Assembly: GCF_056746865.1 (NCBI RefSeq)
Contig: NZ_CM163382.1
Reading direction: 5' to 3' (one strand)
DNA: 64,000 nucleotides
Positions 3 through 52,508 of the stretch are shown here, piece after piece. The notes beneath the pieces were generated by a model, which was not told the origin of the DNA, searched no databases, and was given only the letters and a program-made list of their open reading frames with translations. A program made the translations under genes and the position numbers. Numbering within the stretch: position 1 is the stretch's first letter; every line of letters begins with the position of its first letter.

Positions 3-1967
3 GCACAGAGTGAAGAAGAGGACGATTCGCCTGATACGCAAGAGGAAATCCAGACCTTACTGCTGCGTGCCACCCGCATGGATAACAGCGATACCCTGTG
101 GGATCACTTATTCGAAGATGAAAGCCAGCAAACTATATTACCCTCTGCACTGGCGCACTATTTTGCACAACTGCGGGGCGATTCCCCCGGAGATGCTCTC
201 AATCGTCAGCGCGAAGCCTTTATGGCCCGCTGGATTGGATGGGCGATGCAGCAAAATAATGGGGACGTGTTAGTCGTCTGCGGCGGCTGGCATGCTCCGG
301 CACTGGCAAAGATGTGGCGCGAATACACGCAGGAAATTAACACGCCGGAATTGCCCTCGCTGGCAGATGCCGTTACAGGTTGTTATCTCACCCCCTACAG
401 TGAAAAGCGCCTTGATGTGCTGGCAGGATACCTTTCCGGTATGCCTGCCCCGGTCTGGCAAAACTGGTGCTGGCGGTGGGGCTTGCAGCAGGCAGGTGAA
501 CAACTGCTGAAAACGGTTCTTACCCGTTTGCGCCAGCACAAATTGCCCGCTTCTACCGCTGATATGGCTGCCGCTCATCTGCATGCGATGGCGCTGGCAC
601 AGTTGCGCGGTCATACACTACCGTTACGCACTGACTGGCTGGATGCCATAGCAGGCTCGCTGATTAAAGAAGCCTTGAACGCGCCGTTGCCGTGGAGCTA
701 TCGCGGAGTTATTCATCCCGATACCGATCCGATTCTGCTAACGTTGATAGACACATTAGCGGGTGACGGATTCGGTAAACTTGCCCCCTCTACGCCACAG
801 CCGCCTCTGCCAAAAGATGTCACCTGCGAACTGGAACGTACAGGAATCTCTTTTCCGGCGGAGCTTACCTTAAATCGCTTTACCCCCGATGGACTGGCGC
901 AAAGCCAGGTGCTGCATCGGTTGGCAATACTGGAGATTCCCGGCATTGTGCGCCAGCACGGAAGTACACTGACGCTTGCGGGTAACGGTGAAGAACAGTG
1001 GAAATTAACCCAGCCGCTTAGCCAGCATGCGGCATTAATTGAGGCCGCATGCTTTGGCGCCACACTCCAGGAAGCCGCACGTAATAAATTAGAAGCCGAT
1101 ATGCTGGACGCGGGTGGAATCGGCAGTATCACCACATGTCTTAGCCAGGCGGCGTTAGCGGGTCTGGCGTCCTTCAGTCAACAATTACTGGAGCAACTTA
1201 CATTATTAATCGCCCAGGAAAATCAGTTTGCCGAAATGGGCCAGGCGCTGGAAGTGCTATATGCCTTATGGCGGTTGGATGAAATTAGCGGTATGCAAGG
1301 CGCGCAGATATTACAAACGACATTATGCGCGGCCATCGATCGCACACTCTGGCTGTGTGAATCCAACGGCAGACCGGAGGAAAAGGAGTTTCACGCTCAC
1401 CTGCATAGCTGGCAGGCGCTTTGCCATATCCTGCGCGATCTACATAGCGGCGTTAATTTACCCGGCGTTTCGCTTTCTGCGGCGGTGGCCTTACTGGAGC
1501 GCTGCAGTCAGGCGGTTCATGCCCCGGCACTGGATCGCGGCGCGGCTCTTGGCGCACTGATGCGTCTGGAACATCCCAACGCCAGTGCCGAAGCGGCGCT
1601 GACGATGCTGGCGCAATTATCCCCGGCACAATCCGGCGAGGCGCTGCACGGTTTGCTGGCGCTGGCCCGCCATCAACTGGCCTGTCAGCCGGCATTTATC
1701 GCCGGTTTCAGTAGTCATTTAAATCAACTGAGTGATGCCGATTTTATTAACGCCCTGCCCGATTTACGCGCGGCGATGGCCTGGCTACCGCCACGAGAAC
1801 GCGGGACGCTGGCGCATCAGGTGCTTGAGCATTACCAGCTCGCACAGCTTCCCGTTTCAGCGCTGCAAATGCCGTTGCATTGTCCACCGCAAGCCATTGC
1901 ACATCATCAACAACTCGAACAGCAGGCACTGGGATCGCTGCAACACTGGGGAGTTTTCCATGTCTGA
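3..1967 (+). CDS. yehM: YehM-like protein, 5' partial (reading frame is open from the window edge; the N-terminal portion lies upstream)
   Basis: Long ORF with no stop from position 3 to 1967; its stop overlaps the yehP start (ATGTCTGA at 1960-1967); synteny with yehP/yehQ. Confidence 0.75.
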   Translation, partial: AQSEEEDDSPDTQEEIQTLLLRATRMDNSDTLWDHLFEDESQQTILPSALAHYFAQLRGDSPGDALNRQREAFMARWIGWAMQQNNGDVLVVCGGWHAPALAKMWREYTQEINTPELPSLADAVTGCYLTPYSEKRLDVLAGYLSGMPAPVWQNWCWRWGLQQAGEQLLKTVLTRLRQHKLPASTADMAAAHLHAMALAQLRGHTLPLRTDWLDAIAGSLIKEALNAPLPWSYRGVIHPDTDPILLTLIDTLAGDGFGKLAPSTPQPPLPKDVTCELERTGISFPAELTLNRFTPDGLAQSQVLHRLAILEIPGIVRQHGSTLTLAGNGEEQWKLTQPLSQHAALIEAACFGATLQEAARNKLEADMLDAGGIGSITTCLSQAALAGLASFSQQLLEQLTLLIAQENQFAEMGQALEVLYALWRLDEISGMQGAQILQTTLCAAIDRTLWLCESNGRPEEKEFHAHLHSWQALCHILRDLHSGVNLPGVSLSAAVALLERCSQAVHAPALDRGAALGALMRLEHPNASAEAALTMLAQLSPAQSGEALHGLLALARHQLACQPAFIAGFSSHLNQLSDADFINALPDLRAAMAWLPPRERGTLAHQVLEHYQLAQLPVSALQMPLHCPPQAIAHHQQLEQQALGSLQHWGVFHV

Positions 1968-3096
1968 ACTGAACGATCTTCTGACCACCCGTGAGCTACA
2001 ACGCTGGCGATTAATTCTTGGCGAAGCGGCAGAAACGACGCTTTGTGGGCTGGATGGCAATGCCCGGCAAATAGATCACGCGCTGGAGTGGCTGTATGGG
2101 CGCGATCCTGAACGGCTCCAGCGTGGTGAACGCTCCGGTGGATTAGGTGGCTCAAATCTCACTACCCCTGAGTGGATCAACAGTATTCACACGCTGTTTC
2201 CGCAACAGGTGATTGAGCGGCTGGAAAGCGATGCCGTACTGCGCTACGGCATTGAAGATGTGGTGACGAATCTCGACGTGCTGGAACGTATGCAGCCTTC
2301 TGAAAGCCTGCTACGCGCCGTTTTGCACACCAAACATCTGATGAATCCCGAAGTGCTGGCTGCCGCCCGCCGGATAGTGCGCCAGGTTGTTGAAGAAATT
2401 ATGGCGCGACTGGCAAAGGAAGTTCGCCAGGCTTTTTCTGGTGTCCGCGATCGCCGCCGTCGCTCATTTATTCCACTGGCGCGTAATTTCGATTTCAAAA
2501 GTACGCTGCGTGCCAACCTGCAACACTGGCATCCGCAACACGGCAAGTTGTATATCGAATCCCCCCGCTTTAACAGCCGTATTAAGCGCCATAGCGATCA
2601 ATGGCAACTGGTCTTACTGGTTGATCAAAGCGGATCGATGGTTGACTCGGTGATCCACTCAGCGGTGATGGCGGCCTGTTTATGGCAGTTACCCGGCATT
2701 CGTACCCATCTGGTGGCGTTTGACACAAGCGTCGTTGATCTCACGGCAGACGTTGCTGATCCGGTAGAGTTATTAATGAAAGTACAACTGGGCGGCGGGA
2801 CCAATATCGCCAGTGCCGTGGAGTATGGTCGGCAACTTATTGAACAACCAGCGAAAAGTGTCATTATCCTCGTGAGCGATTTTTATGAAGGGGGTTCATC
2901 ATCCATGCTGACGCATCAGGTGAAAAAGTGTGTCCAGAGCGGCATCAAAGTGCTGGGACTGGCGGCGCTCGATAGCACCGCAACGCCTTGCTATGACCGC
3001 GATATGGCCCTGACGCTGGTTAATGTCGGCGCACAAATAGCCGCGATGACGCCGGGCGAACTCGCTACCTGGCTTGCGGAGAATTTGCAGTCATGA
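1960..3096 (+). CDS. yehP: von Willebrand factor A (VWA) domain protein with MIDAS motif
   Basis: 378-aa ORF starting at the internal ATG 1960 (MSELNDLLTT...); DxSxS MIDAS motif (LLVDQSGSM) visible in translation; coupled to flanking genes. Confidence 0.8.
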   Translation: MSELNDLLTTRELQRWRLILGEAAETTLCGLDGNARQIDHALEWLYGRDPERLQRGERSGGLGGSNLTTPEWINSIHTLFPQQVIERLESDAVLRYGIEDVVTNLDVLERMQPSESLLRAVLHTKHLMNPEVLAAARRIVRQVVEEIMARLAKEVRQAFSGVRDRRRRSFIPLARNFDFKSTLRANLQHWHPQHGKLYIESPRFNSRIKRHSDQWQLVLLVDQSGSMVDSVIHSAVMAACLWQLPGIRTHLVAFDTSVVDLTADVADPVELLMKVQLGGGTNIASAVEYGRQLIEQPAKSVIILVSDFYEGGSSSMLTHQVKKCVQSGIKVLGLAALDSTATPCYDRDMALTLVNVGAQIAAMTPGELATWLAENLQS

Positions 3097-5093
3097 ATTC
3101 ACTACGTCCGGAATTATTAGAACTCACGCCGCAGGCCCTGACGGCGTTAAGCAATGCCGGTTTTGTTAAGCGCAGTCTTAAGGAACTGGAAAATGGCAAC
3201 GTCCCGGAGATCAGCCATGAGAACGGCGCTTTAATCGCCACCTTCAGTGACGGTGTCCGCACCCAGCTGGCGAACGGTCAGGCACTGAAAGAGGCTCAGT
3301 GCAGCTGCGGGGCCAGCGGCATGTGCCGCCATCGCGTGATGCTGGTTTTAAGTTATCAGCGACTTTGCGCCACCACCCAGCCTACGGAAAAAGAAGAAGA
3401 GTGGGATCCGGCAATCTGGCTGGAAGAACTGGCTACCCTTCCCGATGCCACCCGCAAACGCGCACAGGCGCTGGTCGCTAAAGGCATCACCATTGAGTTG
3501 TTCTGTACGCCGGGCGAAATTCCCTCTGCCCGCTTACCGATGAGCGATGTGCGTTTTTATTCCCGCAGCAGTATTCGTTTCGCCCGTTGTGATTGTATTG
3601 ACGGCACACTTTGCGAACATGTCGTACTGGCTGTGCAGGCCTTCGTCGAGGCCAAAACTCAGCAAGCGGAATTTACTCATTTAATCTGGCAGATGCGCAG
3701 CGAACACGTCACACCATCTGACGATCCGTTTGCCAGCGAAGAGGGCAACGCGTGTCGTCAATATGTTCAGCAATTAAGTCAGGCATTATGGCTGGGCGGC
3801 ATCAGCCAGCCGCCAATCCATTACGAGGCCGCTTTCAGCCGCGCACAGCAGACGGCGGAACGCTGCAACTGGCGATGGGTGAGTGAATCGCTACGGCAAC
3901 TGCGCGCCAGCGTTGATGCCTTCCACGCCCGCGCCAGCCACTATCATGCCGGAGAATGCTTACGTCAGCTTGCGGCATTAAACAGTCGATTAAATTGCGC
4001 ACAAGAGATGGCCCGGCGCGACAGTATCGGTGAAGTTCCTCCTGTACCGTGGCGCACGGTCGTTGGCGCTGGCATTGCCGGAGAAGCAAAGCTTGATCAT
4101 CTGCGGCTGGTGTCTTTAGGTATGCGTTGCTGGCAGGATATTGAGCAGTATGGTTTACGCATCTGGTTCACCGATCCCGACACCGGCAGTATTTTGCATC
4201 TTTCGCGTAGTTGGCCGAGAAGCGAACAAGAAAACGCTCCCGCTGCAAAACGTCGGCTGTTTAGTTTTCAGGCTGGCGCACTGGCAGGTGGGCAAATTGT
4301 TTCACAAGCAGCAAAACGCAGTGCCGATGGCGAACTGCTATTAGCTACCCGCAACCGCTTGAGTAGTGTTGTTCCACTGTCGCCAGACGCCTGGCAAATG
4401 TTGAGTGCGCCGCTGCGCCAGCCAGGCATTGTGGCTTTGCGGGAATATTTACGCCAGCGTCCCCCCGCCTGCATACGACCACTCAACCAGGTCGATAACT
4501 TATTTATTCTGCCGGTCGCTGAGTGTATTTCGCTCGGTTGGGATAGCAGCCGCCAGACACTGGATGCGCAGGTCATTAGCGGCGAAGGGGAAGATAATGT
4601 GCTGACGTTATCCCTTCCGGCATCTGCCTGTTCTCCTTTTGCCGTTGAACGCATGGCGGCGCTTTTGCAACAAACAGACGACCCCGTGAGTCTGGTTTCT
4701 GGCTTTGTCAGCTTTGTAGAGGGGCAATTGACACTGGAACCACGGGTGATGATGACAAAAACCCGCGCCTGGGCGCTGGACGCAGAAACTGCGCCTGTGG
4801 CACCGCTACCTTCTGCCAGCGTTTTGCCTGTGCCGTCTACCGCTCATCAGTTGCTGATGCGCTGCCAGGCGTTACTTATTCAACTGCTCCATAACGGCTG
4901 GCGCTATCAGGAACAGAGTGCTATTGGTCAGGCAGAGTTGCTGGCGAATGACCTCACCGCGGTCGGTTTTTATCGGCTGGCACATGTGTTGGCACAATTT
5001 CGTAATACAGAAAGCGAGGCACGGGTAGAAGCAATGAATAACGGTGTTTTGATTTGCGAACAATTATTCCCCATGCTTCAGCAACAAGGATGA
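3093..5093 (+). CDS. yehQ: SWIM zinc-finger protein
   Basis: 666-aa ORF; two CxCx5CxH SWIM signatures (CSCGASGMCRH and CDCIDGTLCEH); ATGA overlap with yehP stop. Exact start not verified. Confidence 0.75.
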   Translation: MNSLRPELLELTPQALTALSNAGFVKRSLKELENGNVPEISHENGALIATFSDGVRTQLANGQALKEAQCSCGASGMCRHRVMLVLSYQRLCATTQPTEKEEEWDPAIWLEELATLPDATRKRAQALVAKGITIELFCTPGEIPSARLPMSDVRFYSRSSIRFARCDCIDGTLCEHVVLAVQAFVEAKTQQAEFTHLIWQMRSEHVTPSDDPFASEEGNACRQYVQQLSQALWLGGISQPPIHYEAAFSRAQQTAERCNWRWVSESLRQLRASVDAFHARASHYHAGECLRQLAALNSRLNCAQEMARRDSIGEVPPVPWRTVVGAGIAGEAKLDHLRLVSLGMRCWQDIEQYGLRIWFTDPDTGSILHLSRSWPRSEQENAPAAKRRLFSFQAGALAGGQIVSQAAKRSADGELLLATRNRLSSVVPLSPDAWQMLSAPLRQPGIVALREYLRQRPPACIRPLNQVDNLFILPVAECISLGWDSSRQTLDAQVISGEGEDNVLTLSLPASACSPFAVERMAALLQQTDDPVSLVSGFVSFVEGQLTLEPRVMMTKTRAWALDAETAPVAPLPSASVLPVPSTAHQLLMRCQALLIQLLHNGWRYQEQSAIGQAELLANDLTAVGFYRLAHVLAQFRNTESEARVEAMNNGVLICEQLFPMLQQQG

Positions 5094-17870: not shown

Positions 17871-18803
17871 TTAATCGTTCTGTGCCGTCTGCCCCGCCGC
17901 CGCCATTTGGGCGGCTTTTTGTTTTTTATAGCTCAACGCTGCTGCCGGAACAGGCATCACTTTACCGGTCTCAATCCAGGTACGCAGGCGGCTGGCATCG
18001 GCAAAATGGGTATATTTGCCAAACGCGTCCATCACTACCAGCGCCACCGGTTTATTATTGATAACCGTACGCATCACCAGACAATGGCCCGCCGCATTGG
18101 TAAAGCCGGTTTTGGTTAACTGAATATTCCAGTTATCGCGATACACCAGATGGTTAGTATTGCGGAACGGCAGCGTATACGTCGGGTTAGAGAAGGTTGC
18201 CATATCTTCCCGGGTGGTACTTAACTGCCCGATCAACGGATATTGTTTGCTGGCAATGAGCAGTTTGGTTAAGTCACGGGCGGTTGAAACGTTATGCACC
18301 GACAATCCGGTCGGTTCAACAAAGCGCGTGTTGTTCATTCCGAGCGATTTCGCTTTCGCATTCATCGCCTTAATAAAGGCTTTGTAACCACCGGGATAAT
18401 GGTGCGCAAGGCTTGCCGCCGCGCGGTTTTCTGAAGACATCAGCGCCAGCAACAGCATATCTTTACGGCTGATTTCGCTATTCAGTCGTACGCGCGAATA
18501 GACCCCTTTCATCTCCGGCGTCTGGCTGATATCCACTTTTAGTTTTTCATCCAGCGGCAGTCGCGCATCCAGCACGACCATCGCGGTCATTAATTTGCTG
18601 ATAGACGCAATCGGACGCACCAGATCCGGGTGGTTCGAATAGATCACTTTGTTGGTATTCAGATCAACAATCATCGCGCTACCGGAGGCAATTTCCGGCT
18701 GTGAAGCGGTGGTAGCGGCTGCCGTTTTCGCAACGGCCTGCGGTGCCAAAGGCACAGCCAGCATCAGGGCCAGGCTAAATAAAGAAACTCGAAATTTCGG
18801 CAT
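17871..18803 (-). CDS. pbpG: D-alanyl-D-alanine endopeptidase (PBP7)
   Basis: 310-aa ORF with signal peptide and SxxK active-site motif (SISKLMT). Confidence 0.9.
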
Positions 18804-18976
18804 GATGAGCATTCAGATAGTGGTTCACGCGCACGGGTTGCGCACCGCCGGAGTAAGGATTTACTGAGGCTAGCGACGCCATCATAACGAGCAAAAAGTG
18901 CGATCGTCAAAGGAGAATCGTGAGGAAATGCTGCATTGCTGACATTTACGCCAGCAATGCAACACAAAAGTACTTT

Positions 18977-19564
18977 CTAGAACAAACGATAACCGTAGCC
19001 CCATAGTATAACGGTAAGGGCGAGCAGCACTTCCAGCACCAGCACGCCAATCGCCAGCGTCGAACTGGAGAAGCTAAGGCCTTCCTCTTTGTTGATATTC
19101 AGGAAGCTCGGAATACCGAGATAAAGCAGGTAGCCGGTGTAAAACAGCGCCACCGTGCCGACCAGCGCACACAACCAGACCAGTGGATAAAGCGCCACCA
19201 GACCGCTTAAAAACAGCGGAGTTGCAACGTAGCCCGCGAAGACCATGCAGTGCGCAAGTGATGGACGTTGCGGATAATTGCGCGCCATCCACCAGATGAC
19301 CCGCCCCATCACCGCGACCCCAGCCAGCATAACGCCATAAAACAAGACAGCCAGCGCCAGTCCGGTAAACCAGGATAACTTCAGGATAGTGCCATCGCCA
19401 AAATTCCAGCCAATCTGTGTAGTGCCAATGAAGGCGCAAATCACCGGAATCGCCGCCATCAGCAAAACGTGGTGGGTGTAATGGTGAGAAATCGTTTCGT
19501 TTTCGCGATTAATCACCTGCATTTCACGATCGGGATGGGAAAACAGTCCCCAGACATGGCTCAT
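18977..19564 (-). CDS. yohC: Yip1-family inner membrane protein
   Basis: 195-aa multi-TM ORF. Confidence 0.7.
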   Translation of the reverse strand: MSHVWGLFSHPDREMQVINRENETISHHYTHHVLLMAAIPVICAFIGTTQIGWNFGDGTILKLSWFTGLALAVLFYGVMLAGVAVMGRVIWWMARNYPQRPSLAHCMVFAGYVATPLFLSGLVALYPLVWLCALVGTVALFYTGYLLYLGIPSFLNINKEEGLSFSSSTLAIGVLVLEVLLALTVILWGYGYRLF

Positions 19565-38653: not shown

Positions 38654-40633
38654 TCAGAAGCGATAATCCACTGCCATAAAGTAACGACGTCCGTCTTCGT
38701 TATAGCTGTAGTCGTCACGACTGAGATCCTTGTCGCCAAGGTTCAGCACGCCTGCGCGCAGTTTGACGTCTTTAGTCACCTGCCAGGCCGCGCCGGTATT
38801 CCAGATGGTATAACCGCCAGGTGTTTTAGCCGTCGCGCTGTCGGCTCGTTTCTGCCCGGTATAGTGACCAGAAACATAGAATGACCAGTCTTCCAGCGCC
38901 AGCGGTTTCCAGTCCAGCGTACCGTTAGCGGTATGGAACGGCAGATCGGATAGCGGTTTGTTTTCGCCGTTGCTGACATCACGACCATCGTTGTAGGTGT
39001 AGTTGAGTGACAGTTTCCATTCATCGTTGAACGGAATTTTCAGTTCGGTTTCCACGCCCTGAATACGAGCTTTGTTAACGTTGTAGTAGCTAAATACCGG
39101 CACACCGTTCGCTGTAAAACCAACAAAGTTTTGGTAGCCCGGTGCAGCATTGACGTCAGACGTACGGCTGATGCTGATACGATCTTTCACATCGTTACGG
39201 AAAACGGTAACGCTGGATTCAACCCCTTCCAGCCAGCCTTCTTCACCCATGTAGTAAAGCCCCAGCTCCCAACTTTCGCTGGTTTCTGGTTTCAGATCCG
39301 GGCTACCCACAATCTTACATGCGCCACGGCAGGAATTGCTCGTCCAGTCAGGGCTAAGTTGCAACAGAGAAGGTGCTTTAAATGCCGTCGCCCAGCCCCC
39401 TTTCACCGTTACGGTGTCGGTGGCGTTATAAACCAGGTAGGCACGCGGACTCCAGTGTTCACCGTAGGTTTCGTGATCGTCCATACGCACGCCGGTCGTC
39501 AGCGCCAGCGGCTCGAAGATCCGCCATTCATCTTCCACAAACAGCGCGTACTGGCTGGCAGACGTTTTGGAGCTGGTTCCCCCGGTCAGGTTCACCGCAT
39601 CGCTAAGTTTGTCGTGACGCCATTCACCGCCAACCGTGAGAAACTGATTAATCGCCGTCAGCGGCAACGTGTATTTGCCGTCGACCGTATTGCTTTCGGA
39701 AGTTATCGGGCTGCTGTTGCCAGGGTTTTTGTTCTCGACTTTCTCACCGTAGTATTTCAGTTCGCTGGTGCCGTAATCCCAACGCCCATTATGGCTGACG
39801 GAGTAGTTCTAGCGTTCCAGGCGGTTTTTGTCCAGCGAGTCGGAATCACGATCCTGACGGTCGAAACCGTATCCGGCAGTAAAATCGTGATTTTGATTCG
39901 GTGTCCAGGCAAATTCGACATTGCCGTCGCGGCTGGAGAATCCTTCAATACGCGGCGTATCTCCGGTATCGGTGGTCGTTGAGTTTTGCGGGTCATCCTT
40001 TTCACGTTTTGCCAGGCTGCCGTAAGCTTTCATTCCCAGCACACCATCAATTAATGGTCCACTGGTAAAGAACTGACCGTTATAGGTATCACCGCGATCG
40101 CGATGTTCCTGAATGGTGGTATCGACGGTAACGGTACCCGACCATTTCTGACCGATTTTTTTGGTGATGATATTCACTACACCGCCGAGCGCATCGGAAC
40201 CGTACAGCGACGACATCGGGCCACGGACCACTTCAATACGTTCGATGGAATCGACCGGGATCCAGTTCAGATCGAAATCATTGTGGCGGAAGACGGCATT
40301 GCGGGAGTTAACGCGTTTACCGTCGACAAGAATCAGGGTGTAGCTGCTGTCCAGACCACGAATACTAACGCCCTTACGGTTATCCCCTTCGTTCGTCAGT
40401 TGTACGCCAGGCACTTCTTTGAGGACATCCTTCAGATTCTGTACCGGTTTTCGCTGCAGGTCTTCCTGGGTAATGACGCTGATACTGGCGGGTGCATCTT
40501 TAAGGTTTTGTTCAACGGAAGATGCAGTGACAACCATCGTTTCGCCATCATCATCGACCGCTAACACAGGCCATGCACAAGAAATAGCGGACAAACACAG
40601 CCCGACCCGTACGAAAGGGTTCAACCTAAACAT
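38654..40633 (-). pseudogene. cirA: TonB-dependent catecholate siderophore / colicin I receptor, interrupted by an in-frame TAG (minus-strand codon at 39809-39811)
   Basis: Two ORFs (39809..40633 and 38654..39667) lie in one frame across 1980 nt; translation reads ...[17 protein letters not shown]...; N-terminus [25 protein letters not shown] and C-terminal ...YFMAVDYRF are typical of a TonB-dependent receptor. Confidence 0.8.
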
Positions 40634-46757: not shown

Positions 46758-48008
46758 TCAAGCTAAACCAATAAAGAACCCGGCAATGGTCGCACTCATC
46801 AAGTTGGAAAGCGTCGCCGCCGCCAGCGCGCGTAAACCAAGCTGGGCGATTTCCGGCGCACGGTGTGGCGCAACCGCAGAAAATGCGCCAACCACCACCC
46901 CGATAGAACCAAAGTTAGCGAAACCGCACAACGCGAAAGAAATAATCGCCACGGTTTTAGCATCCAGAGTGCCAGCTGTTTGCAGATAAGGTGAGAAATT
47001 GAGGTAAGCGACAAATTCATTTATTGCCAGCTTCTGTCCAATCAAACTCCCGGCAAGATTCGCATCACTCCAGTCAACCCCCATCACCCATGCCAGTGGA
47101 GCCAACAGGTAACCTAAAATGGACTCCAGCGAGGCATGTTCAAAACCAAACCAGCCGCCAACGCCGCCGATAATACCGTTAATCAACGCAATTATTGCAA
47201 CAAATGCCATCACCACTGTCGCCACACCTGCGGCGATTTTCAGCCCGGTCATTGCCCCTGTAGCGGCGGCTTCAATAATGCTTTTTGGCGGTGTTTCGGT
47301 GAAAGAGAGGTTATTAAAGGAAACCTGCGAAGATTCCGTAGCCGGGCTTAACAGGCGGGCAAACAAGATCCCGCCGGGGATCGCCATTAACGATGCCGCT
47401 AGCAGATATTCCACAGGCACGCCCAGTGCGGCGTAACCAATCATTGTCGAACCAGCAATCGAGGCCATGCCACTACAAATAGCCGTAAATAATTCATTGC
47501 GATTCAGACGATCGATAAAGGGTTTGACGATTGCCGGAATTTCGTTTTGCCCGAGGAAAATGGTAGTGACCGCGACGAATGACTCAATCTTGCTGATATT
47601 CAATGCTTTCTGGAATATACCGCCGAGAATGCGAATTAAGATCCCCATCACACCGATGTAGTAGAGAATACTCACCAGTGCTGTAACGAAGATAATTGCC
47701 GGTAATACCCTGAAACCAAAGATAAATCCAGCGCCATCAAATAAGGTGTCCATTTTCGGTCCGACCAGAGAACCAAAGATAAATGCGCTACCCGCGTCGC
47801 TGTACGCCATCACTTTATGCACGCCAAAAGCGACTTTTTCAGCGACCCAACGCCCTGGCGGTAACCAAAGCATAATGCCGCCAATCACGACCTGTAACAC
47901 TAACGCCGCGCCAACGGTACGCAGGCTGATCTTCTTCTTGTTTACTGACAGCAAAAACGCAATTGCCAGCAATACCACCATTCCCAGAACACTTCTCATG
48001 ACATCCAT
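46758..48008 (-). CDS. nupX: NupC-family nucleoside permease
   Basis: 416-aa multi-TM ORF; paralog of the ORF at 51258..52508. Confidence 0.85.
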   Translation of the reverse strand: MDVMRSVLGMVVLLAIAFLLSVNKKKISLRTVGAALVLQVVIGGIMLWLPPGRWVAEKVAFGVHKVMAYSDAGSAFIFGSLVGPKMDTLFDGAGFIFGFRVLPAIIFVTALVSILYYIGVMGILIRILGGIFQKALNISKIESFVAVTTIFLGQNEIPAIVKPFIDRLNRNELFTAICSGMASIAGSTMIGYAALGVPVEYLLAASLMAIPGGILFARLLSPATESSQVSFNNLSFTETPPKSIIEAAATGAMTGLKIAAGVATVVMAFVAIIALINGIIGGVGGWFGFEHASLESILGYLLAPLAWVMGVDWSDANLAGSLIGQKLAINEFVAYLNFSPYLQTAGTLDAKTVAIISFALCGFANFGSIGVVVGAFSAVAPHRAPEIAQLGLRALAAATLSNLMSATIAGFFIGLA

Positions 48009-48107
48009 AGTTATTATCTCTTCATGTCATTTTGGGCGACGGCTTTCTGCCCATCAGAAATAGCCGGGCCTGCATCTTGCGATACTGACCCGGCTTGTTA
48101 TCAACAC

Positions 48108-48252
48108 TTAATGGGTTTTGATGTAGCCGCGCACGCACTCTTCGACTAATCCCCAGAACCAGTCGGTATCAATAGTGATGCCGACTTTGGTATTAGCGGG
48201 CTTGCCAAGAACGCCCAGCTCGTCGCAGACAGTACGCCCATAGCAAGGGCCA
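48108..48252 (-). pseudogene. rihB: 3' fragment of pyrimidine-specific ribonucleoside hydrolase gene, separated from its 5' part by an IS insertion
   Basis: Minus-strand translation ...[47 protein letters not shown] continues exactly from the ...MYVEVDVNS end of the 5' fragment across the IS. Confidence 0.85.
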
Positions 48253-48307
48253 CTGAACCGCCCCGGAAATCCTGGAGACTAAACTCCCTGAGAAAGAGGT
48301 AAACAGG

Positions 48308-48634
48308 ATGACTAAAAATACTCGTTTTTCCCCCGAAGTCCGTCAGCGGGCGATTCGTATGGTTCTGGAAAGTCAGGATGAATATGACTCACAGTGGGCG
48401 GCAATTTGTTCCATTGCCCCAAAGATTGGCTGTACGCCGGAGACTCTGCGTGTCTGGGTTCGCCAGCATGAGCGGGATACCGGGGGCGGTGATGGTGGGC
48501 TCACCAGCGCTGAACGTCAGCGTCTGAAAGAGCTGGAACGTGAAAATCGTGAACTGCGCCGCAGTAACGATATCCTTCGCCAGGCTTCCGCTTATTTTGC
48601 GAAGGCGGAGTTCGACCGCCTCTGGAAAAAATGA
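48308..48634 (+). CDS. IS3-family transposase OrfA (HTH DNA-binding)
   Basis: 108-aa [26 protein letters not shown]... with leucine-zipper-like C-terminus; A6 run at its 3' end. Confidence 0.9.
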
Positions 48635-49521
48635 TGCCACTGCTGGATAAGCTGCGTGAGCAGTACGGGGTCGGACCGGTATGCAGCGAACTGCATATTG
48701 CCCCGTCAACGTATTACCATTGTCAGCAACAGCGACATCATCCGGATAAACGCAGTGCCCGTGCGCAGCACGACGACTGGCTGAAGAGAGAGATACAGCG
48801 CGTATACGATGAAAATCATCAGGTGTACGGTGTGCGTAAAGTCTGGCGTCAGTTGTTACGGGAAGGAATCAGGGTGGCCAGATGTACAGTGGCACGTCTC
48901 ATGGCGGTTATGGGACTTGCCGGTGTTCTCCGGGGTAAAAAGGTCCGTACGACCATCAGCCGGAAAGCCGTTGCCGCAGGCGACCGCGTAAACCGTCAGT
49001 TCGTGGCAGAACGACCTGACCAGCTGTGGGTGGCTGATTTTACTTACGTCAGCACATGGCAGGGCTTCGTCTATGTGGCGTTTATCATTGATGTGTTTGC
49101 CGGATACATCGTGGGGTGGCGGGTCTCATCGTCTATGGAAACGACATTCGTGCTGGATGCGCTGGAGCAGGCGTTGTGGGCCCGTCGTCCGTCTGGCACC
49201 ATCCATCACAGCGATAAAGGCTCTCAGTATGTGTCACTGGCCTATACGGAGCGACTAAAAGAAGCCGGATTACTGGCATCAACAGGGAGTACAGGCGACT
49301 CGTATGACAACGCGATGGCTGAGAGCATCAATGGTCTTTACAAAGCGGAGGTAATACACCGTAAGAGCTGGAAAAACCGTGCAGAAGTGGAACTGGCCAC
49401 ACTAACGTGGGTGGACTGGTATAACAATCGACGATTGCTGGGAAGGCTGGGCCATACTCCTCCGGCAGAAGCAGAAAAAGCTTATTATGCTTCCATCGGA
49501 AACGATGATCTGGCAGCCTGA
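48631..49521 (+). CDS. IS3-family transposase OrfB (DDE integrase catalytic domain)
   Basis: 296-aa ORF in the -1 frame relative to orfA, overlapping at AAAAAATGATG; DDE-type core; probably expressed as an OrfAB fusion by -1 frameshifting. Confidence 0.9.
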
Positions 49522-49563
49522 GTTCACAGATAAAACACTCTCCAGGAAACCCGGGGCGGTTCA

Positions 49564-50362
49564 CACTGTTGACGTCCACTTCGACGTACATCTCCTGGGT
49601 TTTAATGCCATCAGGGTTAATCAGATAACCGATGCAGGTGGCGTCATGCACCGGGCCGCCAGCCAGGCCGTAGTTTTCGAACTGCGTTTTTAGAGTGAAA
49701 TTCATGATGTCGCTGAACAGCTCTCCGGCGGGGCCGCCTACCCTTTCCATCCGGGCAATCACGTCCGGGGTGCAAACAGTCTGGTTGGTGAGATCGAGGC
49801 CCATCATCACCAACGGAACGCCGGAGGTGAACACCACGCGTGCGGCTTCCGGGTCGGCAAAGATGTTGAACTCGGCAGATGGGGTGAAGTTGCCTGTACC
49901 GTAAGCGCCGCCCATTAGCACAATTTCACGGATTTTCGGCAGGATCGCGGGTTGCATACGCATTGCCACCGCGATATTTGAAAGCGGACCAACCGGCACC
50001 AGAGTGATATCACCATCGCTTGCCATCAGGGTATCAATGATATATTTCACCGCATGAGTGCTTTCTGCCTGGCGGGTCAGCGGCCCGAATACCGGGCCAT
50101 CAAGTCCGGTTTCACCGTGAATATTATCGGCAACGATTTGTTGACGCATAATGGGCTGTGGCATCCCCGCATAAACCGGAACATTAATCTCCAGTTTCTG
50201 GCAAACATTCAGGCCATTAATTAATGTTTTATCAAGCGTCTGATTACCCGCCACAATGGTGATGCCTAATAAATCAATCACCGGATGTTTCGCGGCCATC
50301 ATTATGGCAATAGCATCATCATGACCCGGATCACAATCCAGAATAATTTTTCTCTTTTCCAT
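49564..50362 (-). pseudogene. rihB: 5' part of pyrimidine-specific ribonucleoside hydrolase gene (N-terminal DCDPGHDD motif), truncated by the IS; the ORF runs on into IS sequence
   Basis: ORF 49328..50362 begins [22 protein letters not shown]... (nucleoside hydrolase signature) and switches to unrelated IS-derived residues after ...VDVNS. Confidence 0.85.
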
Positions 50363-51257: not shown

Positions 51258-52508
51258 TCAAGCTAAACCAATAAAGAACCCGGCAATGGTCGCGCTCATC
51301 AGGTTGGAAAGCGTTGCTGCTGCCAGCGCCCGTAAACCAAGCTGGGCGATTTCCGGCGCGCGTTTTGGCGAAATAGCCGAAAATGCGCCAACGACAACAC
51401 CGATAGAACCAAAGTTCGCAAAACCACAAAGCGCAAAGGAGATAATCGCCACGGTTTTCACTTCCAGCGTGCCGCCCGTTTGCAGGTATGGGGAGAAACT
51501 CAGGTAAGCGACAAATTCGTTAATCGCCAGTTTCTGCCCAATCAGGCTACCCGCAAGGTTGGCATCACTCCAGTCCACACCCATGATCCACGCCAGCGGT
51601 GCCAGCACATAGCCAAAAATACTTTCCAGAGAGGCATTGGCGAAACCAAACCAGCCGCCAATTCCGCCGATAATGCCGTTGATCAGCGCAATAATTGCGA
51701 CAAACGCCATTACCACCGTCGCTACACCAGCGGCGATTTTCAGCCCGGTCATCGCACCGCTCGCCGCTGCTTCGATAAAGCTTTTTGGCGGCGTTTCGCT
51801 GAACGACAGATTTTCAAATGTGACCTGCGAAGGCTCGGTTGCCGGGCTAAGAATACGTGCAAACAAAATACCGCCAGGGATCGCCATCAGCGATGCCGCT
51901 AACAGGTAGTCAATTGGTACGCCCATTCCGGCATAACCAATCATCATCGAACCAGCAATGGACGCCATCCCGCTACAAATAGCCGTAAACAACTCGTTGC
52001 GATTCATGCGATCGATAAACGGTTTAACGATCGCCGGGATCTCATTTTGCCCGAGGAAAATAGTAGTAACCGCAACAAAAGATTCGATTTTGCTGATGTT
52101 GAGGGCTTTCTGGAAAATGCTGCCAAGGATGCGAATCAGCAGCCCCATCACGCCAATGTAGTACAGCAGACTGATGAGCGCAGTAACGAAGATAATCGCC
52201 GGAAGTACGCGAAAGGCGAAGATAAAGCCCGCGCCATCAAACAGGACATCCATTTTCGGCCCGACCAATGAACCAAAAATAAAGGCGCTACCGGCATCAC
52301 TGTAAGACATCACTTTATGAACGCCTAATGCCGCCTGTTCTACTGCCCATTTTCCCGGTGGGAAGTAGAGCATGATGCCACCAATAGCGATTTGCAGCAG
52401 CAGTGCGGCTCCAACCGTGCGCAAACTGATGCCCTTTTTATTCACTGACAACAGAAATGCTATTGCCAGTAACACCACCATCCCCACAACACTTCTCATT
52501 ATATCCAT
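51258..52508 (-). CDS. psuT: NupC-family nucleoside (pseudouridine) transporter
   Basis: 416-aa ORF, paralog of nupX; upstream of psuG/psuK on the same strand. Confidence 0.85.
   Translation of the reverse strand: MDIMRSVVGMVVLLAIAFLLSVNKKGISLRTVGAALLLQIAIGGIMLYFPPGKWAVEQAALGVHKVMSYSDAGSAFIFGSLVGPKMDVLFDGAGFIFAFRVLPAIIFVTALISLLYYIGVMGLLIRILGSIFQKALNISKIESFVAVTTIFLGQNEIPAIVKPFIDRMNRNELFTAICSGMASIAGSMMIGYAGMGVPIDYLLAASLMAIPGGILFARILSPATEPSQVTFENLSFSETPPKSFIEAAASGAMTGLKIAAGVATVVMAFVAIIALINGIIGGIGGWFGFANASLESIFGYVLAPLAWIMGVDWSDANLAGSLIGQKLAINEFVAYLSFSPYLQTGGTLEVKTVAIISFALCGFANFGSIGVVVGAFSAISPKRAPEIAQLGLRALAAATLSNLMSATIAGFFIGLA

Follow-up and report, generated by a model that had tools for sequence, protein, structure and literature searches.

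A complete IS1203 element interrupts the nucleoside hydrolase gene rihB in a non-K-12 Escherichia coli strain

The gene rihB of the E. coli strain studied here is split by a complete copy of IS1203, an isoform of the insertion sequence IS629, and is a pseudogene in the 64-kb stretch of DNA that was analysed (the window). We hold with high confidence that the element transposed into rihB in a non-K-12, ST69-like E. coli background. The insertion is very recent and private to this strain. The window carries a single copy of IS1203 (48254..49563), of which the outer features are the following.

48254..49563, + strand: complete IS1203 (IS629 isoform), IS3 family, 1310 bp, with 100% identity over 1-1310 to many annotated copies
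48254..48278, + strand: left terminal inverted repeat (IRL), a 25-nt arm beginning with TG
49539..49563, + strand: right terminal inverted repeat (IRR), ending with CA, located with a repeat finder
48251..48253, no strand: target-site duplication, left copy CAC; a relative's empty site has a single CAC
49564..49566, no strand: target-site duplication, right copy CAC; a relative's empty site has a single CAC

The boundaries of the element were established by sequence inspection: its left end, TGAACCGCCCCGG, begins at 48254 and its right end, read as the complement CCGGGGCGGTTCA, finishes at 49563, which gives 1310 bp on the + strand. An earlier note on this DNA had placed the element at 48253..49563 and given it 1311 bp; the right end stands, while the start, and with it the length, was off by one base. 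The imperfect terminal inverted repeats described there were found again at both ends upon re-inspection. Their 25-nt arms match at 22 of 25 positions (88% complementary; TGAACC...GGTTCA), and the element has the imperfect repeats with 5'-TG...CA-3' termini of the IS3 family. The proposed 3-bp target duplication is also present, as CAC lies directly outside both ends of the element and occurs once only in two relatives with an empty site. After CAC, the letters TG also match on both sides. This further match is coincidental, TG being both the first two letters of the IS and the beginning of the target's continuation, TGTTGAC. In identical IS copies at other places the first letters are TGAACC, and the duplication is therefore 3 bp long. 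Target duplications of 3-4 bp have been described for IS629 (PMC3271280).

The element was identified by megablast against a collection of 5,426 complete genomes of E. coli, which also served as the comparison set for the junctions. Full-length nucleotide matches of 100% were obtained in many records, including O157:H7 chromosomes and plasmids, and the identical copies are annotated in RefSeq as 'IS3-like element IS1203 family transposase', together with an 'AL1L pseudoknot'. Some IS629/IS1203-like match is present in 4,252 of the 5,426 genomes, at a median of 4 places per genome, with most matches falling in the 95-99% identity band. Because thousands of IS copies match at 95-100% identity, the identification is far beyond chance. 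IS1203 is treated as an isoform of IS629, the sub-types of which diverge from one another by about 4-5% (PMC3271280). The identity of the window copy to RefSeq copies annotated as IS1203 is at the isoform level (above about 95% nucleotide identity; 1310 bp), and from this identity the copy would belong to the IS1203 isoform of IS629 (sub-type I in PMC3271280). It shares with IS1203 (Paton & Paton 1994, from E. coli O111:H-; sub-type I, Rump et al. 2011, PMC3271280) the length of 1310 bp, 100% nucleotide identity to annotated copies, one OrfAB fusion identical to the named transposase, and the 3-bp duplication. It differs in location only: no other sequence that was searched has IS1203 in rihB. 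With IS629 sensu stricto of Shigella sonnei (Matsutani & Ohtsubo 1990), it has the family, the length, the architecture of the inverted repeats, the orfA/orfB -1 organisation, and a 3-4 bp duplication in common (PMC3271280), whereas it sits with the IS1203 sub-type when judged by the RefSeq copies.

The coding capacity and the recoding signals of the element are as follows.

48308..48634, + strand: orfA, 108 aa, an ORF with an HTH_Tnp_1 DNA-binding domain and a leucine-zipper-like C-terminus
48631..49521, + strand: orfB, 296 aa from the first ATG (48631), in a frame that is open from 48568; catalytic DDE domain
48589..48705, + strand: ALIL (apical loop-internal loop) pseudoknot, a -1 frameshift stimulator (Rfam RF01497, full length), spanning the orfA/orfB overlap
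48595..48599, + strand: UUUUG slippery motif (U_UUU_G), a candidate -1 frameshift site in the ALIL element
48625..48633, + strand: A6 run and orfA stop (AAAAAAUGA), a second candidate -1 frameshift site in the ALIL element

The two ORFs lie in 0 and -1 frames, in agreement with the arrangement given in the earlier note, and orfA is followed by orfB as in the IS3 family. Pfam HTH_Tnp_1 covers residues 1-87 of orfA, and HTH_21, rve, and rve_3 are found in the orfB region. The ALIL pseudoknot scores 121.5 bits with Rfam, against a gathering score of 50; together with UUUUG and A6 it makes up the predicted frameshift signals. An exact protein look-up showed that the fusion obtained by a shift at UUUUG is identical to 'MULTISPECIES: IS3-like element IS1203 family transposase', while the fusion obtained by a shift at the A-run is identical to the database protein 'IS3 family transposase'. 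The predicted frameshift site is thus ambiguous and may be UUUUG or the A-run. Chen & Hu, in 2006, are said to have found that IS629 uses both sites. The 404-aa OrfAB fusion matches the NCBIfam IS3 transposase model NF033516 over positions 1-369 of 369 with 366.3 bits (cutoff 160). The predicted OrfAB combines an N-terminal HTH with an rve core of the DDE transposases of the IS3 family, and carries an acidic triad D244, D303, E339, spaced 59 and 36 residues apart (OrfAB numbering). The assignment to the IS3 family as an IS629/IS1203-like element, made before any database was consulted, is thus borne out by the 100% nucleotide matches, the NCBIfam score, and the exact OrfAB match. The IS1203 copy is complete and apparently functional.

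The insertion lies at codon 266/267 of rihB, with the IS 799 bp inside the gene, and leaves the following pieces.

49564..50362, - strand: rihB 5' fragment, codons 1-266 and one base, with a CAC copy counted in
48108..48253, - strand: rihB 3' fragment, codons 267-313 and the stop, with a CAC copy counted in; cut off from the promoter and the start codon
49328..50362, - strand: chimeric ORF of 344 aa, RihB residues 1-266 followed by 78 residues antisense through the right end of the IS

Deletion in silico of 1313 bp (the IS and one CAC) gives back a RihB ORF of 313 aa, so that the two parts of the gene do rejoin in frame as had been claimed. Of the 313 residues of the restored protein, all but 4 agree with the crystallised RihB/YeiK of K-12 (PDB 1Q8F), and the IU_nuc_hydro domain (Pfam PF01156) takes up residues 6-299. 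The protein is recognised as RihB by this fold, by orthology to K-12 b2162, and by synteny, the gene order nupX-rihB-yeiL-psuT matching that of MG1655 and of E. coli 2017C-4173W12 (NZ_CP030768.1). In the window itself, the full-length frame is interrupted after codon 266. As the break falls after residue 266, the nucleoside hydrolase domain loses its final 33 residues. With the end of its domain missing and a nonsense tail of 78 residues in its place, the RihB enzyme is almost certainly inactive, as predicted from the sequence. The genes nupX (46758-48008) and psuT (51258-52508), both on the minus strand, are about 80% identical paralogues that lie in direct orientation on either side of rihB and yeiL.

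By analogy with the IS3 family, the event may be pictured as follows. Programmed -1 ribosomal frameshifting where orfA and orfB overlap, with ALIL as the stimulator, would give the OrfAB transposase. The element would next be copied into a circular form that is inserted at the target, according to the copy-out-paste-in route via a circular intermediate that has been described for this family (bioRxiv 10.1101/2023.06.07.543989; PMC3299598). A staggered 3-bp cut at the target, upon repair, would yield the CAC duplication, and truncation of RihB after residue 266 of 313 would result in loss of the enzyme.

The empty site is found in close relatives of the source strain. When the IS and one CAC are removed, the window equals the sequence of E. 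coli 2017C-4173W12 over 62,687 bp with 2 SNPs. In that genome, rihB is intact, with a single CAC at the site (gene at 18109-19050 of the compared locus, L001). The closest relative found, which was reached through the truncated CirA and provides a natural empty-site control, is the sister assembly ENA ERZ21879008: its contig NODE_2 (286,607 bp) is 100% identical to positions 29809-51946 of the window (20.8 kb) save for the IS. The sister contig has the same nonsense SNP in cirA as the window, yet its rihB site is empty and intact. The insertion is therefore younger than the cirA SNP and private to the source strain. That the insertion is precise and recent, as originally proposed, is confirmed by the 3-bp duplication, the restored ORF, and the empty sites, and the inactivation of rihB proposed with it is predicted. 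An old insertion that became fixed in the lineage is extremely improbable, considering the empty site in the sister with the private cirA SNP, the full identity of the IS to widespread copies, and the lack of the junction from all 5,426 complete genomes, including those that are 100% identical in both flanks.

The same comparisons bear on the host. The region is 97.8% identical to that of K-12 MG1655, and an origin from a K-12 derivative is ruled out by an identity this low. Strains named 'O15:H18 strain ST69' and 'UPEC69' match the right flank at 100% identity, and these names suggest an ST69-like background. The suspicion voiced in the earlier note that the source is another lineage therefore holds, given the non-K-12 backbone and the ST69-/UPEC69-named matches. 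Its statement that K-12 lacks this IS agrees with the literature, in which K-12 is described as being without IS629/IS1203 (PMC3271280; bioRxiv 10.1101/2023.06.07.543989). The second SNP relative to NZ_CP030768.1 is located at window position 18752 in pbpG, where the window has the common allele. In 1,889 records, the 81 bp around this position are conserved at 99% identity or more, the matches listed including ones of 100%, and the SNP is probably specific to the reference strain, not to the window. Directly upstream of pbpG, at 18808-18888 on the minus strand, lies the Rfam Peptidase-S11 RNA motif RF03039 (72.8 bits, gathering score 34.8).

Several collections were searched for the same junctions. 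The left rihB-IS junction was found by megablast in 0 of the 5,426 complete E. coli genomes. The right junction at the rihB site was likewise found in none of them by megablast, four apparent matches being due to a different, intergenic insertion. In the representative genomes of GTDB and the metagenomes of JGI, exact scans with 35-nt junction sequences gave 0 matches. When the chimeric ORF of 344 aa was looked up as an exact protein, no identical entry was on record, a search that genes annotated as pseudogenes escape; draft isolate assemblies were covered solely by this look-up. No other public sequence searched shows the junction, and this, combined with the presence of the IS family in multiple copies in many E. 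coli (a median of 4 places in each genome), would be compatible with an assembly artefact in which an IS was misplaced into rihB during repeat resolution. A misjoin, however, can account neither for a perfect 3-bp duplication at the canonical TG...CA ends nor for flanks that both agree with the empty site at every base, and we regard an artefact as highly improbable. The absence of the junction from every public collection searched could also be taken to point to an engineered or in-silico insertion that mimics transposition. Nothing sets the insertion apart from a natural event, as its ends, the length of its duplication, and its intact IS are all as expected, and the absence itself must be read with the draft isolate assemblies in mind, where an annotated pseudogene would be missed. 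An engineered origin is for these reasons considered very unlikely.

The four apparent matches to the right junction come from the O157:H7 cattle strains 144, 150, YB14-1, and F1 E4, in which an independent IS1203 lies between nupX and rihB (1891-3200 of the compared locus L002 of NZ_CP028603.1, equivalent to window positions of about 48063-48065). That insertion resembles the one in the window in that it consists of IS1203 (1 mismatch in 1310) in the same orientation with a 3-bp duplication (GCC), 188 bp away. It differs in being intergenic, in leaving rihB intact, and in its strain background. Two independent insertions of IS1203 within 190 bp, in the same orientation and in unrelated lineages, are the basis for two further suggestions, namely that nupX-rihB is a preferred landing zone of IS1203 or that the insertion was selected, for instance along with the cirA nonsense mutation, through effects on nucleoside salvage or on yeiL/nupX expression by read-through or polarity. 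This pair of suggestions is quite unlikely to be correct.

Selection, in the more specific form of a real insertion favoured for the loss of RihB, for polarity on nupX, or for read-through from orfB antisense through rihB towards yeiL, is unlikely as well. It would fit the independent IS1203 at 188 bp in four O157:H7 strains, the location of orfB and yeiL on the same strand, and a second loss-of-function mutation nearby in the same strain, cirA Q275*. These points have to be set against the fact that the insertion is known from one sequence only, without recurrence at the site, and that rihB is reportedly silent in K-12 (PMC2898832). The local sequence argues in the same direction: a terminator-like hairpin at 49669-49686 (+ strand) stands in the read-through path from orfB towards yeiL, the rihB-yeiL promoter region is intact, and neither a consensus scan nor inspection by eye revealed an outward or hybrid promoter at the right end of the IS. 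The suggestion in the earlier note that the IS could affect yeiL is unsupported in view of this local sequence and of the position of the IS, 799 bp inside rihB, and expression of yeiL from a promoter at the IS end was rejected as unsupported. On the same strand, nupX follows rihB downstream at a distance of 99 bp, and polarity on nupX is possible; a literature search on co-transcription of rihB and nupX yielded nothing useful.

In K-12, rihB has been reported to be physiologically silent, and a second pyrimidine hydrolase of E. coli, RihA, has similar kinetics (PMC2898832). For these reasons the phenotypic cost is expected to be small, and the insertion is probably neutral or nearly so. The gene is contiguous in 5,399 of the 5,426 complete E. 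coli genomes, which hints at some purifying selection and counts against full neutrality. It is frameshifted in strain SCU-106, and nupX is missing from strain A1.S1.18; decay of the locus is thus seen in other lineages as well.

The nonsense mutation in cirA was observed in the comparison with NZ_CP030768.1. It changes CAG to TAG at codon 275 (Q275*; window 39809-39811, minus strand, SNP at 39811) and breaks the receptor for catecholate siderophores and colicin I into a Plug fragment of 274 aa and a barrel ORF of 337 aa. Resistance to colicin Ia/Ib and to cefiderocol has been associated with loss of CirA. Four complete genomes have the same stop, annotated as 'internal stop', and it also occurs in ENA and Logan contigs. 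The flanks in the four complete genomes agree with the window at no more than 93-98% identity, by which shared ancestry of the stop is ruled out; the stop is therefore recurrent.

In enterohaemorrhagic E. coli (EHEC), IS1203v/IS629 has been found in stx2, lacZ, and O-antigen genes, and the insertion in rihB is similar in that the same IS inactivates a chromosomal gene. The EHEC inactivations are reversible by IEE-promoted excision (bioRxiv 10.1101/2023.06.07.543989; PMC9397093), and precise excision would restore the gene there as it would restore rihB here. The cases differ in that rihB has no known virulence or diagnostic role; the window contains no iee.

In conclusion, a known IS (IS1203/IS629) with a known mechanism has caused an ordinary insertional inactivation at a site that is previously unrecorded and otherwise unremarkable. 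As the IS, its mechanism, and this type of gene inactivation are all well described, no new biological question is raised. The practical value is small: rihB can be flagged as a pseudogene in this strain, and the strain-specific junction is usable as a marker for typing or tracking. For the biology of the element, the insertion means that IS1203 is active now, or has been recently, in a background resembling ST69, and not only in the EHEC lineages in which it is usually studied.
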